Below are positions 1,929 to 7,932 of a stretch of 64,000 nucleotides of DNA, piece by piece; position 1 is the first letter of the stretch; the number at the start of each line of letters is the position of its first letter. Made by a program: the position numbers and the translations under genes. The notes beneath the pieces were generated by a model. It searched no databases and was not told the DNA's origin. It worked only from the letters and a program-made list of their open reading frames with translations. Origin of the DNA: an uncultured Hormoscilla sp. (lineage in GTDB: Bacteria; Cyanobacteriota; Cyanobacteriia; Cyanobacteriales; Desertifilaceae); assembly GCA_963921275.4 (NCBI GenBank), contig OZ001293.3:4768001-4832000 (forward strand), given 5' to 3'.

Positions 1929-2621
1929 ATGACACAAAATACAGATCGACTAGACAAAGAAGTTCAGTCACTTTTTCAAGGAATCCGAAATAAATTAAAA
2001 TTACCTGAGACAGCTCCCGAAAAGCTGAAATACTATATACAAGAACATAGCGGATTTTCCAGGTACAACCCGATGTTACTATCGGCTGGTGCTGAGAATT
2101 CTCAATCTGTTACTGCCTTATCTGCGGAGTTACAGCGAAACTCTGATGAAGAAGGTGGAGCTTCTGGTGAAGAGTCTCATTTTGCTATCTATACCCAAGG
2201 GCTTCGAGAGTCATTCCAGTTTAAGGTGGATGAGTATAATCTTTCAGCAGAAACAAACCGTTTCCTGGAAACGATGCTTGACATTTGTAAATCAGGTTCT
2301 TCGAGTAAAATCTGTGGTGTTTTTTACGCAACTGAGGCCGGTGCTATTCCAGAGTTAGAGCTAGTTCGCGATCTAACCGATTTGTACTCAAAGTCTCAAC
2401 AGGACTGTCAACCCTCAGAAAAATTGAAATACTTCTTCGATTTTCATCTCAATGGGGTAGAACAGGAACACAAAGATGGTATTGGAATCTTTATCAACCA
2501 GTACGAACAACATGGTCTAAATTTAAGTGAAATCCATGAGGGCTTCTCTAATACTATAACAGCGATGGATACCTGGTGGAGCGATCTGGAACTGACAGTT
2601 TCAGCCAACGATCGACGCTAG
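1929..2621 (+). CDS. Heme-oxygenase-like diiron oxidase (HDO; CADD/DUF3865-like)
   Basis: 230 aa; NxxEExG..SH, YATE and FHLxxxEQEH give the E/H ligand pattern of HDO enzymes. Confidence 0.7.
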   Translation: MTQNTDRLDKEVQSLFQGIRNKLKLPETAPEKLKYYIQEHSGFSRYNPMLLSAGAENSQSVTALSAELQRNSDEEGGASGEESHFAIYTQGLRESFQFKVDEYNLSAETNRFLETMLDICKSGSSSKICGVFYATEAGAIPELELVRDLTDLYSKSQQDCQPSEKLKYFFDFHLNGVEQEHKDGIGIFINQYEQHGLNLSEIHEGFSNTITAMDTWWSDLELTVSANDRR

Positions 2622-2749
2622 AGGAGCGGCGAAACTAGAGTTCAGTCTCTACCCATAACTGAACTCTAGTATGGGTAGAGAATGTCTATTATTCTCTGCT
2701 GTATTACAATTTTTATTGTGTTGCAAACTTATTTTGACTATAAAAAAGC

Positions 2750-3898
2750 ATGAGTAAACAAACATCAAATCTCAATACAGATAGGGATAGGAAAAATCAG
2801 CTTGAGGAGATCCTGAGTGAGAGCTGGACAAAAGTACTTGGTATCGAAAAAATAGGGAAAGATGATAACTTCTTTGAATTAGGAGGGAATTCTCTGCAAG
2901 CCATTCAAGTTGCTGTTACATTAGCCACAGCTTTACAAGTAGAAATCCCTAAAAATATCCTGTTTGAAAAACAAACCTTAGCCAGTCTAGCAGATGCGAT
3001 CGAGACACTTTCTAAAACAGGTTCTGAACTGCAGCCTACTTCCACCGAACCTGTTTCATCAGAGATCGAAGAGCCTATCCCCTTTCTTGGAAGTCAAGTT
3101 GCTTCTGACCCAAGCAAAACTGCCGCTGAAATCAAAGAAAAGATCAAAGAACTTTACGATCTCTACACGAGAAAACTTAATGCAACAATTTACAACAATA
3201 GTTCAAAGTTTTTGAATTATGGATATATTGATGATGGAAGCCCACAAGAAGCAGTCATAAAATTACCAAAGTACCTACTCCACAAACATAATATTAAATT
3301 AATTCTTGAGTTAATTGGCGATTGCCCACTTACCAATTGCCGAATTCTAGATATCAGTTGCGGTCGAGGTGGAAATGTTGAAGTAATTGCTAAATACTTC
3401 GATACTCAGGAAATTATTGGCCTCGATCTATCTCCAGAAGCAATTGCATTTTGCCAAGTCAACTACAGCTACGATAATGTTCGTTTTGTAGTGGGTGATT
3501 CTGAGAATTTACCTTTTGAAGCCAATCAATTTGATGCGATAACAAATATTGAATCTTCTCACAGTTATGGCGATGTTATTGCCTTTTACAAAGAAGTTCA
3601 TAGGGTACTCAAACCGGGAGGATATTTCTTATATTCAGATTTGATTTTAGCCGAGCGATTGGAACATAACTTATCTGTTCTAGAAGAAATAGGGTTTATA
3701 GTAAAAAGGAATCGAGACATTACCAAACAAGTTTTGTTATCTTGTGAAGAAGCTGCTAAAGTAAACTTACAGGTAATTGAAGTCGATAAAGATTCTCAAG
3801 TAATGAAAGAATTTTTGGCAGTACCTGGAACCAAATTTAATGAGAGTTTTCAAGAAAGAATATGGACCTATAGAATTTTGAGACTGCAAAAAAGTTAA
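2750..3898 (+). CDS. Peptidyl/acyl carrier protein fused to a class I SAM methyltransferase
   Basis: N-terminal DDNFFELGGNSL phosphopantetheine motif; C-terminal LDISCGRGG, NIESSHSY, LKPGG. Confidence 0.88.
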   Translation: MSKQTSNLNTDRDRKNQLEEILSESWTKVLGIEKIGKDDNFFELGGNSLQAIQVAVTLATALQVEIPKNILFEKQTLASLADAIETLSKTGSELQPTSTEPVSSEIEEPIPFLGSQVASDPSKTAAEIKEKIKELYDLYTRKLNATIYNNSSKFLNYGYIDDGSPQEAVIKLPKYLLHKHNIKLILELIGDCPLTNCRILDISCGRGGNVEVIAKYFDTQEIIGLDLSPEAIAFCQVNYSYDNVRFVVGDSENLPFEANQFDAITNIESSHSYGDVIAFYKEVHRVLKPGGYFLYSDLILAERLEHNLSVLEEIGFIVKRNRDITKQVLLSCEEAAKVNLQVIEVDKDSQVMKEFLAVPGTKFNESFQERIWTYRILRLQKS

Positions 3899-3900
3899 TC

Positions 3901-5530: not shown

Positions 5531-5580
5531 TTTAAAGTTCAGCAGTTGATTGGAAACTTGAAGACAAAATTCTTGAAGAC

Positions 5581-6981
5581 ATGGATATTATCTTGAAACT
5601 TGTCGGGTATACTCGCTCGAGACACAATCTCACTTTCCTTTACCAATATCATGAAATCACTTTTACCACTACTCTTTGGTATTCAACAGTTGACTTTCAT
5701 CAACTGGAGGAAGAGTATGGGCAAGAATACATGGGAAAACTGTATTTTCATATTTTATTATTTCATGGTTTAAAAATCTTGAGTTTGAAACCAACTCATC
5801 TAGATCTTGGAGAATATGCTAAATATTGGAGCCCCCAGTTACAAAAAGTTTGGGAAAGAAGTGTTGAACAGTGTTTGGGGCAGTGGAGATATGAATCGGG
5901 CAATATCGATTATTCAGGAGTAGAAGTTATCGCTAAAGATGTTCCCGAACTCAAAATAGAGCCGATAAAGCTGAATGCCCAAGACCCCCCACTTCTTGTC
6001 TGTAATGGTGGAGGAAAAGATAGTGTTTTAATGATTCGTTTATTGGATGAGCGCGCAATTTCTTTCGACACCTTTAGCATCAATTTTCACACTCACGCCT
6101 ATCCAGAAAAGATGTTTGAGTTGAATGAAAAACATCTTGACTACCTCGATCATCCTCCGCAAAAGAACCATCGTCAGTACATTATAGAGTCATTCCTTAA
6201 TTCTCCGGCGGCTAAACTTCATGGAGTAGAAGACTTAGAGATTTCTCTGATGCATAATGATGAAGACCTACCCAACGCTTACGGAGTTTTTGGTATCCTT
6301 CCTATTATTCTTCAAGAAAAATATACAAGTATCTGCTTTGGAAATGAGAGAAGTGCTGAAAGTGAAAATGTTCAGGTAAACGAGCAAATCATTAATCATG
6401 CCTGGAGTAAAACTACTGAATGTGAAATTCTTTACCAGCAATACGTTCAAAAAGAATTTATCGCTAATCTTTCCATCTTCAGTTTCCTGAAACCTTTTTC
6501 AGATGTGTTAGTTTATCGTCTTTTAGCTAAAAAAGTAAATCCAATAAGTCTAGCACTAGCTTATTCATGTAATCTAAATCCTCCTTGGTGTAAATTATGT
6601 CCTAAATGTGCTTATGTTTGGTTATCTTACATGGCTTATCTCGCGCCAGAACAAGTCAAAGCTATAGTCGAAGTTTTTGGAGAAGAAAATCTCTTCGACT
6701 GTTCGGATTTACAGTTTTACTATCGAGGGCTTATGGGTTTAGAAAGTCATAAACCCTTTGAATGTGTTGGAGAGATAGAAGAAAGCAAACTTGCCTTTGA
6801 AAAATGTGTTGAACGAGGAGTTACAGGAAAAGCTGTGGATAGCTATCTTCAAAAAGCCCGTTTAGATAAAGATGAGTATAAAAAGTTATGGGAAAAATAT
6901 AATCAAATCGATCTGTCCTACCAGTATTTACCCCAACAATTCCAGGCTCTTCTTGTTAAAGAATATCAGAATTTAGAATAA
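5581..6981 (+). CDS. MurL-like PP-loop (adenylating) enzyme
   Basis: GGGKDS PP-loop, GNERSA, NHxWSK, YSCN..WCKLCPKC and HKPFECVGE follow the motif order of MurL peptide epimerases. Confidence 0.65.
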   Translation: MDIILKLVGYTRSRHNLTFLYQYHEITFTTTLWYSTVDFHQLEEEYGQEYMGKLYFHILLFHGLKILSLKPTHLDLGEYAKYWSPQLQKVWERSVEQCLGQWRYESGNIDYSGVEVIAKDVPELKIEPIKLNAQDPPLLVCNGGGKDSVLMIRLLDERAISFDTFSINFHTHAYPEKMFELNEKHLDYLDHPPQKNHRQYIIESFLNSPAAKLHGVEDLEISLMHNDEDLPNAYGVFGILPIILQEKYTSICFGNERSAESENVQVNEQIINHAWSKTTECEILYQQYVQKEFIANLSIFSFLKPFSDVLVYRLLAKKVNPISLALAYSCNLNPPWCKLCPKCAYVWLSYMAYLAPEQVKAIVEVFGEENLFDCSDLQFYYRGLMGLESHKPFECVGEIEESKLAFEKCVERGVTGKAVDSYLQKARLDKDEYKKLWEKYNQIDLSYQYLPQQFQALLVKEYQNLE

Positions 6982-7932
6982 ATGACAAATCAGCTACACA
7001 AATCCCAACAATCATTGTTTTTACCAGAAAACCTAAAGGCAATAATTGCCTTGTTGACTGCCCTGATTATTTGGGCTTTTGTTCCTATCGCAATCCGATT
7101 AGGCGAAAGGGAAATGATCCCCAATCTTCTTATCTTTCATCGTTTCTGGATATCTACTATCATCTTGGGGTTGTGGAATGGATTTCCGAGTGTAAATCGC
7201 CAATTATTCGAGGATCGATCCGAGCAAAAACAACCCTATAACAGTCGATTGGTGGTGCTATTACTAGCTATTGGCATCTGTTTTGGGGGGGAGCAAATTA
7301 TCTGGGCTTGGTCGCTGACTCAAACCAGCATTGCTAATTCATCACTTCTGCACAGTCTCTCCCCCCTATTCACCACTTTGGGGGGATGGATATTATTTGC
7401 ACAGCACTTTGATAAGAGATTTATGCTCGGTATAATAGTTGCCATTCTAGGCTCGGCGATCGTCGGATTCGACGATCTATCGTACAGTATAGACAAGCTA
7501 CAAGGTGATGGCCTCTCTCTTCTTTCTGCATTTTTTTTAGCCGGCTATTTCCTGTTTGTCGAACAAGTCCGAACTCAGTTTAATACTAGAACTATACTTC
7601 TATGGTCTTGTACGATCGGCACTCTAGGGCTTTTTCCTATCTTTCTAATGACCAAAGATAAACTTTTACCCTCTTCGTGGAGTGAATGGCTAATAGTTCT
7701 GCTTCTAGCTTCGATGCTAGTTTTCGGTTACGGACTTCTAGCCTATTCTCTCAAGTTTTTGTCCTCAGGGTTAGTTGCCACAATTTTACTCTTCGATCCA
7801 GTCATTACTGCTATCCTTGCCTGGGCAATTTTCTCAGAAACACTGGATTTCTATAACTTAGTTGCTTTTCCAATAGTTTTGGGGGGCATATACTTAGCCA
7901 CAACTAGCCAATCTGCTATTAAAGGGACTTAA
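6982..7932 (+). CDS. DMT/EamA family transporter
   Basis: 316 aa, about 10 hydrophobic helices in two EamA-like halves; abuts the upstream gene. Confidence 0.88.
   Translation: MTNQLHKSQQSLFLPENLKAIIALLTALIIWAFVPIAIRLGEREMIPNLLIFHRFWISTIILGLWNGFPSVNRQLFEDRSEQKQPYNSRLVVLLLAIGICFGGEQIIWAWSLTQTSIANSSLLHSLSPLFTTLGGWILFAQHFDKRFMLGIIVAILGSAIVGFDDLSYSIDKLQGDGLSLLSAFFLAGYFLFVEQVRTQFNTRTILLWSCTIGTLGLFPIFLMTKDKLLPSSWSEWLIVLLLASMLVFGYGLLAYSLKFLSSGLVATILLFDPVITAILAWAIFSETLDFYNLVAFPIVLGGIYLATTSQSAIKGT

Follow-up and report, generated by a model that had tools for sequence, protein, structure and literature searches.

A strain-specific six-gene block in a Hormoscilla genome combines a heme-oxygenase-like DUF3865 protein, a carrier-methyltransferase and a MurL-like PP-loop enzyme

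Introduction

We describe a block of six adjacent genes (1929-7932) in a 64-kb stretch of DNA from the 7.03-Mb cyanobacterial genome of an uncultured Hormoscilla sp. (G000; positions 4768001-4832000 of the contig). This whole 64-kb stretch is called the window below. The first gene of the block encodes a putative heme-oxygenase-like diiron oxidase/oxygenase (HDO) of the DUF3865 family. Npun_F6505 (PDB 3b5o), a CADD-like protein of the same Pfam family, has no known function, and to our knowledge no reaction has been assigned to any DUF3865 HDO. By profile, the nearest characterised relative of the family is BesC, the 4-chloro-allylglycine synthase of the bes terminal-alkyne amino-acid pathway (PDB 7twa), whose substrate is given as a free basic amino acid in an excerpt on these enzymes (PMC11363339).

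The fifth gene encodes a MurL-like enzyme. MurL is an ATP-dependent epimerase and, according to an excerpt of a review, the only characterised member of its family (PMC8788868). The initial annotation of the window had taken its acyl-adenylate mechanism as established; the same excerpt words it as a hypothesis, proposed and not proven (PMC8788868). Closer relatives, 65-72% identical to the enzyme of the window, belong to an uncharacterised operon of Trichodesmium, Okeania, Moorena, Symploca and other cyanobacteria, which encodes a methyltransferase, a NADAR protein, a Zn-dehydrogenase, the MurL-like enzyme, a TauD protein, an isochorismatase and a short-chain dehydrogenase/reductase (SDR). We know of no function assigned to MurL-family enzymes outside cell-wall synthesis, and found no paper on them in secondary metabolism, with most subscription journals lying outside the search. 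The closest systems for the remaining enzymes are guanidinobutyrase (GbuA), guanidinopropionase (GpuA) and proclavaminate amidinohydrolase, which remove urea from guanidino acids, and the carrier-methyltransferase didomains at the ends of polyketide synthases (PKS) and nonribosomal peptide synthetases (NRPS).

A small biosynthetic operon with an HDO and independent of NRPS is a known kind of system, and the six-gene composition seen here is new. The combination had not been recognised as a described pathway when the window was first annotated, and we likewise found no paper on it, again with most subscription journals outside the search. Two enzyme families about whose functions very little is known, DUF3865 HDOs and MurL-like enzymes outside the cell wall, stand together in a compact and clonable 6-kb unit. 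Expression of this unit could assign a first reaction to both obscure families, could show whether a PP-loop enzyme serves a carrier protein, and could bring to light a new small metabolite made by a filamentous cyanobacterium. The block is best read as a recently acquired, strain-specific mosaic operon whose parts serve different clusters elsewhere, and it illustrates how strain-specific biosynthetic operons are built from modules that work in other clusters.

Results

Six Intact Genes in a Foreign, Strain-Specific Island

All six genes lie on the plus strand. They encode, in order, the HDO (1929-2621, 230 aa, PF12981); a fusion of a carrier domain (residues 22-84) with a class I S-adenosylmethionine (SAM) methyltransferase (residues ~130-382; 2750-3898, 382 aa); a second, small class I SAM methyltransferase (MT2; 3901-4527, 208 aa, Methyltransf_11); a ureohydrolase of the guanidino-acid hydrolase type (4559-5530, 323 aa, Arginase family PF00491); a MurL-family ATP-dependent PP-loop enzyme with a QueC fold (5581-6981, 466 aa, NF041275 and PF26298/PF26299); and an EamA/DMT-family membrane transporter with two repeats (6982-7932, 316 aa). 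The intergenic gaps are 128, 2, 31, 50 and 0 bases, the start codon of the EamA gene abutting the stop codon of the MurL-like gene. The open reading frames (ORFs) were found exactly where the initial annotation had placed six tightly spaced, co-oriented and intact genes, and its six domain assignments all proved right against Pfam and NCBIfam. Judged from the alignments described below, the predicted catalytic motifs are all kept, namely the HDO ligands, the carrier serine, the SAM motifs, the Mn motifs, and the PP-loop with its Cys cluster.

The block is compositionally foreign. Its AT-richness and lack of HIP1 sites, noted by eye in the initial annotation, were borne out by counting: GC content was 0.394 in the island compared with 0.478 in the rest of the window, and the 50 copies of HIP1 (GCGATCGC) in the window included none between 398 and 11635. 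About 5.7 copies were expected in 6 kb, so that the Poisson probability of finding none is about 0.003. GC content at third codon positions (GC3) was 0.28-0.41 in the six island genes and 0.46-0.61 in seven native genes, and the low GC3 common to all six fits their transfer as one unit.

The borders were set by three genomes of the same genus. Homology to the window stopped at -1057 in G003, at -541 in G002 and at 1386 in G004, and resumed at 8066 or 8081; the strain-specific island therefore extends from about 1387 to 8065 at its widest, with no strand assigned to it as a whole. All three genomes compared lack it at the corresponding position. The cargo at that site was a DUF3179 gene alone in G003 (L031, G003:C160); TPR, subtilase, AAA/DUF3226 and DUF3179 genes in G002 (L032, G002:C3); and SpvB/TcdB-like and RHS/PT-HINT genes with AAA/DUF3226 and DUF3179 genes in G004 (L033, G004:C18). 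The locus from panB to the desaturase gene (window ~-1000 to 8080) is thus hypervariable within the genus.

Contig pieces of 151-210 bases with no letter differing from the island were found in runs of three other studies, which argues that the island sequence is not an artefact of one assembly; none of these pieces bridged a gene junction. The whole stretch was present in four runs of one further study, which may be its source, and no RNA run was among those containing it.

Relatives of the Island Genes in Other Genomes

The initial annotation had named synteny in other genomes beforehand as the test on which its reading could fail, and the gene set was syntenic nowhere among the loci searched (13 MurL-like loci, G678 and the same-genus genomes). 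When the MurL-like enzyme alone served as query, no match was found in genome contigs. The alignment-based scan found 13 other loci, each with a MurL-like gene that shares 58-72% identity with the window gene, from Symploca, Moorena, Okeania, Caldora, Trichodesmium IMS101, Spirulina, uncultured cyanobacteria and a broken Hormoscilla copy. In 12 of the 13, a Zn-dehydrogenase gene lay directly upstream of the MurL-like gene, usually with methyltransferase, NADAR, TauD, isochorismatase and SDR genes, which is the operon introduced above. Unlike these loci, the island lacks all six other genes of that operon, and its enzyme branches outside the operon members. The same-genus genome G003 carries the methyltransferase/NADAR/Zn-dehydrogenase/MurL-like operon with the MurL-like gene broken by stop codons and split over contigs (L010/L024, L011), and the genome of the window itself has the MurL-like gene as the island copy only.

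The Spirulina locus (L022, 161-9406) gave a third context for a MurL-like gene. Its order was an Orn/Arg-type pyridoxal-phosphate decarboxylase, a HalD-like protein, an AsnB-type synthetase, the MurL-like enzyme, a PhyH dioxygenase and an isochorismatase, followed by an AlaDH/PNT-type dehydrogenase, an SDR and a methyltransferase.

Genome G678 encodes an HDO 78% identical to that of the window, followed directly by an EamA homologue 41% identical over its full length. At this locus (L028, G678:C35, 9038-15703) the HDO-EamA pair stands 2.4 kb from an oppositely oriented ArgZ-type arginine dihydrolase gene; two NAGPA-domain genes separate them, and the proximity may be a coincidence. We left a link to arginine through this argZ aside, given the opposite strand and the two unrelated genes that separate it from the HDO gene.

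In G011 (L040, G011:C35:6713-17711, minus strand), a PKS gene with the domain order KS-AT-DH-KR-ACP-TE is followed by a MurL-family gene (30% identical), an MT2-family gene (55% identical), an FGE-sulfatase/DinB protein gene and a class II glutamine amidotransferase gene. This is a second, independent pairing of the MurL and MT2 families with a carrier-bearing synthase.

As read from these neighbourhoods, the island appears to be a mosaic: the HDO-EamA pair is known from one other genome, the MurL-like enzyme comes from the family of another operon, and MT2 from PKS clusters. Relatives of three of its parts (MurL-like enzyme, MT2 and carrier-methyltransferase) lie in other clusters that resemble those of secondary metabolism. 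This mosaic is a singleton, and the gene set does not amount to a conserved pathway.

The HDO Has a Predicted Heme-Oxygenase-Like Fold and a Complete Set of Candidate Metal Ligands

The HDO scored 85.5 bits against PF12981 (DUF3865; cut-off 31.6). Structure prediction of the proteins encoded at 1929 and 5581, which had been proposed as a check in the initial annotation, agreed with the assigned folds in both cases. The AlphaFold2 (AF2) model of the HDO (mean predicted local distance difference test score, pLDDT, 96.9) was all-helical with eight helices; its best Foldseek matches were 3b5o, CADD, BesC and HrmI, and UndA and RohS were also matched. The model is that of a helical heme-oxygenase-like fold.

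In an alignment of 66 relatives, E75, H84, E136, E142, H173, E178 and H181 were invariant, and they line up with the E, H, E, H, E, H series in the BesC chain. An excerpt on HDOs gives their metal-binding motif as E-H-X-H-(D/E)-H (PMC11363339), and by alignment the window protein carries it. With the family profile, 3b5o was matched best (E 7.5e-68), then BesC (E 1.6e-15) and CADD (E 0.004). The HDO is thus like BesC in its heme-oxygenase-like fold and E/H/E/H/E/H ligands, but the two are 15-16% identical in the Foldseek alignment. Npun_F6505, the best structural match, is 25% identical in the corresponding alignment. The bes-pathway partners, that is a BesD-type halogenase, a pyridoxal-phosphate enzyme and an ATP-grasp ligase, were absent from the island and the adjacent ORFs of the window in a domain scan. 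A self-sacrificing synthase of the CADD type was rejected for the HDO, the family alignment having no invariant Tyr or Lys.

This HDO belongs to a rare family, with 221 matches among 1.84 billion representatives at E <= 0.001. It was matched in 2 of 401 genomes in the phylum sample and in 2 of 401 in the order sample; the Pfam DUF3865 family was matched in 3 of 401 genomes, two of them over the cut-off. Close relatives amounted to four proteins in a 90%-clustered collection, the window HDO included, and those 84% and 62% identical to it (P0122 and P0124) sit on short contigs. There were no matches in four same-genus genomes, and metagenome scans with the single protein and with the alignment as query found nothing. 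A search of the ESM Atlas returned DUF3865 and Haem_oxygenas_2 clusters only, none with a functional name. A canonical DUF3865 gene in G081 has a Rieske oxygenase, a tRNA-dihydrouridine synthase and Cas3 as neighbours, with no island gene alongside.

The Carrier-Methyltransferase and MT2

The fusion protein matched the PP-binding (E 1.2e-14) and Methyltransf_11 (E 2.4e-22) models. Its carrier part was nearest to the peptidyl carrier proteins (PCPs) of the NRPSs PvdL, LgrA and TycC, and keeps the serine (Ser48) in a GGNS motif, aligned to GGHS in its relatives. The single Sfp-type phosphopantetheinyl transferase (PPTase) of the genome could make the carrier functional. The methyltransferase part matches the Mtf2 fatty-acid and phthiotriol O-methyltransferase models over their whole length, scoring 136 bits compared with cut-offs of 300-400. 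No close homologue was found in our searches, the best match being limited to the methyltransferase part, with 52% identity there. Didomain relatives were 36-40% identical and kept the motifs GG(H/N)S and LD.GCGRGG; they include stand-alone proteins as well as proteins with KR or TE domains, in the forms KR-carrier-MT and carrier-MT-TE. Domain order and motifs are those of the didomains at PKS and NRPS ends, but the window fusion stands alone, unlike many relatives with KR or TE.

MT2 matched Methyltransf_11 (E 2.1e-15), with METTL27 as its nearest solved structure (E 8.4e-24). At E <= 1e-20, 75 of 401 genomes of the order had relatives, with up to 63% identity. In all three loci read (L040, L041 and L043), they follow a PKS that ends in ACP-TE.

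The Ureohydrolase Probably Groups With Enzymes Acting on Guanidino Acids

The ureohydrolase matched the Arginase family PF00491 (E 7e-82). Its motifs GGDHS, DAHCD (DAHxD) and DIDFFDP (DIDxxDP) align with those of GbuA, GpuA and proclavaminate amidinohydrolase, consistent with an arginase fold with binuclear Mn motifs. The initial annotation had proposed removal of an amidino group from an arginine- or agmatine-like precursor. The ureohydrolase family stood. Among solved structures the nearest were GbuA (3nio, 250 bits), GpuA (3nip, 240 bits) and proclavaminate amidinohydrolase (1gq6, 214 bits), ahead of agmatinases at 186 bits or less. Against agmatinase models the protein passed TIGR01230 (204.3 bits vs 174.3) and just missed PRK02190 (286 vs 302). 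We tentatively place it by sequence with the three guanidino-acid enzymes, a placement from which its specificity is not readable.

Homologues at E <= 1e-50 were found in 4 of 301 genomes of the order, the best 44% identical, and the host genome has one other ureohydrolase paralogue (29% identical). Neither the ureohydrolase nor the carrier-methyltransferase had a near relative in the cyanobacteria searched.

The MurL-Like Enzyme Keeps All Family-Invariant Residues

In the Pfam/NCBIfam scan the MurL-like enzyme was recognised by NF041275 only, with 113.8 bits over residues 246-412 and an equivalog cut-off of 700. The precomputed Pfam record assigns it PF26298/PF26299 (MurL_N and MurL_C), a pair carried by 121 homologues. 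A MurL-like protein is also encoded in Streptomyces (P0020). Across 58 members of the family 19 columns were invariant, and the window enzyme keeps all of them, among them the GGGKDS loop, Cys330/337/340/343 (C-x6-C-x2-C-x2-C), H273, K277 and E394-C395. Its AF2 model (pLDDT 93.1) matched QatC, TtuA, QueC and Cap9 best in Foldseek, and we therefore regard it as a QueC-type PP-loop enzyme. In a tree it stood at the base of the cyanobacterial clade, whose members are 58-72% identical to it, with support of 87/89, which is not strong. The enzyme thus has its family, PP-loop, Cys cluster and other invariant residues in common with MurL, but unlike MurL it falls below the equivalog cut-off and in a separate cyanobacterial clade. 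Neither murD2 nor any Mur ligase or cell-wall gene lies beside it, its neighbours being the ureohydrolase and EamA genes, and there is no Mur ligase in the window.

Thiotemplate Context

The initial annotation had described a carrier domain without an adenylation or condensation domain in the window, and a scan of the window ORFs of at least 100 aa agreed, with neither domain in any of the 51. No NRPS or PKS lies near the island. Across the genome there were 30 AMP-binding matches; on either side of the island, the closest lie about 594 kb downstream and about 876 kb upstream. The EamA protein matched its model at E 8.6e-39.

Proposed Function and Alternatives

We put the probability that the operon makes a small methylated product from a guanidino or basic amino acid, and then exports it, at roughly 0.6. 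The particular order of steps and the chemistry that we outline for it are doubtful. The ureohydrolase would unmask an amine by taking urea off a guanidino acid, like GbuA, GpuA and proclavaminate amidinohydrolase. The HDO, with lysine-fragmenting BesC as its nearest characterised relative, might carry out an O2-dependent oxidation, either N-oxygenation or C-C fragmentation. We infer that its substrate would be free, because the 78%-identical relative has no carrier gene nearby. The MurL-like enzyme would adenylate the carboxylate of the substrate with ATP, and inversion at the alpha-carbon, as in MurL, is the most likely outcome, since all family-invariant residues are kept. The two methyltransferases would add methyl groups, the carrier-fused one being of the lipid or carboxyl O-methyltransferase type, and EamA would export the product.

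Several observations weigh against this proposal. The six-gene set occurred in no other genome or contig searched (13 MurL-like loci, G678 and two metagenome scans), so conservation lends no support to the six genes working together. The other five island genes were found in none of the 13 MurL-like loci, where at E <= 1 there were only weak generic methyltransferase matches, and in G678, the sole other genome with a close HDO, the other four were absent at the locus. No carrier gene occurred in the flanks read around relatives of the HDO or MurL-like enzyme except in G011, where a distant MurL-family gene follows the PKS ACP. For loading or unloading the carrier, the window offers neither a thioesterase nor a condensation, ketosynthase or ANL adenylation domain. 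No riboswitch or regulator that would hint at a substrate was found, an Rfam scan of 1-13000 at E <= 1 giving a group II intron only, and counts of promoter-like sites (22 vs 16.9 +/- 4.0) and terminator-like sites (7 vs 6.4 +/- 2.9) lay within the expectation from shuffled sequence. Finally, in a host genome with many broken genes, the intact ORFs may reflect nothing but recent arrival.

The alternative that survives best gives the MurL-like enzyme another role. It would adenylate a carboxylate and pass it to the amine that the ureohydrolase has uncovered, so that a lactam or an amide forms. Adenylation of a carboxylate and its transfer to a nitrogen nucleophile is the chemistry of most PP-loop and QueC-fold enzymes, and the fold of the window enzyme matches QueC, QatC and Cap9, which we take to be formers of C-N bonds after adenylation. 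Clavulanate biosynthesis pairs a beta-lactam synthetase with proclavaminate amidinohydrolase, and the latter is among the three nearest solved relatives of the ureohydrolase. MurL-family genes also lie beside genes for nitrogen-donating enzymes, namely the AsnB-type synthetase in Spirulina and the class II glutamine amidotransferase in G011. However, the island has no amidotransferase, and the sole characterised member of the family, in the review excerpt, is an epimerase (PMC8788868), all 19 invariant columns being kept in the window enzyme. We regard the lactam or amide route as possible but unlikely.

It is quite unlikely, in our judgement, that the island is a non-functional patchwork, in which pieces of clusters landed in a recombination hot spot and the ORFs are intact only through recent arrival. 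The singleton combination, the unrelated cargo at the variable locus in sister strains, a genome rich in gene fragments and mobile introns, and a pathway without loading and release steps all fit such a patchwork. Six full-length ORFs with apparently intact catalytic motifs amid many broken neighbours speak against it, as do the operon spacing (gaps of 0, 2, 31 and 50 bases) and the common low GC3 that fits transfer as one unit.

We consider it improbable that the six genes form a carrier pathway without an NRPS, in which the MurL-like enzyme replaces an ANL domain and loads the carrier-methyltransferase, with methylation and oxidation taking place on the carrier. The kept serine of an NRPS PCP-type carrier, the one Sfp-type PPTase and the lack of any ANL domain within about 594 kb all agree with carrier loading. 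The KR-carrier-MT and carrier-MT-TE forms of the didomain relatives suggest that such a methyltransferase normally works beside a loaded carrier, and in G011 the MurL-family gene comes directly after PKS ACP-TE. Yet there was no carrier gene in the flanks read at the 12 of 13 MurL-like loci that have the Zn-dehydrogenase operon, nor beside the close HDO relative, and the island has no release enzyme. No carrier-loading PP-loop enzyme was found in the literature searched, and we know of none. A complex prediction for the MurL-like enzyme and the carrier domain (residues 1-100) gave a score of 0.00, which is no answer and counts neither way. A specific version, in which the MurL-like enzyme loads the stand-alone PCP-methyltransferase with a guanidino or amino acid and oxidation by the HDO and urea removal by the ureohydrolase complete the product and set it free, for instance through self-lactamisation of the unmasked amine, is distinctly improbable. 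Loading by a MurL-like enzyme would, if true, be a new way to load carrier proteins and would give a thiotemplate pathway without an NRPS.

That the six genes form the tail of an already known NRPS or PKS locus, as the PCP-type carrier and the relatives of the fused methyltransferase at synthase ends might suggest, is hardly credible and is refuted for the host genome, in line with the initial annotation, by the domain scan (no A, C, KS or TE domain in the window), by rbcLXS, panB and group II introns upstream, by the nearest AMP-binding match about 594 kb off, and by the island borders set by the sister genomes.

Other Features of the Window

Upstream of the island lie rbcLXS, panB and group II intron reverse transcriptase genes, and downstream another group II intron, a fatty-acid desaturase gene and gene fragments. 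The downstream intron (9196-11590) is complete, with a reverse transcriptase/maturase/HNH ORF at 9810-11585 and domains V-VI at 11514-11591, and directly precedes the desaturase ORF (11569-12507). The three same-genus genomes lack it at the corresponding position, where their sequences continue without a gap.

Three sets of tandem direct repeats occur upstream of the island (60-240, 600-860 and 1090-1560). The units of the third set are about 220 bases long, each with a near-consensus TTGACA-17-TATAGT site (at 1246 and 1465).

A second small cluster, partly decayed and with FtsK/SpoIIIE fragments on both flanks, occupies 41525-48080. It contains a truncated TauD gene, a class III aminotransferase gene split in two (42421-43320 and 44159-44548) and a gene for a D-glutamate-cyclase-like protein, together with an intact class III aminotransferase gene, which lies on the opposite strand, and a methyltransferase gene.

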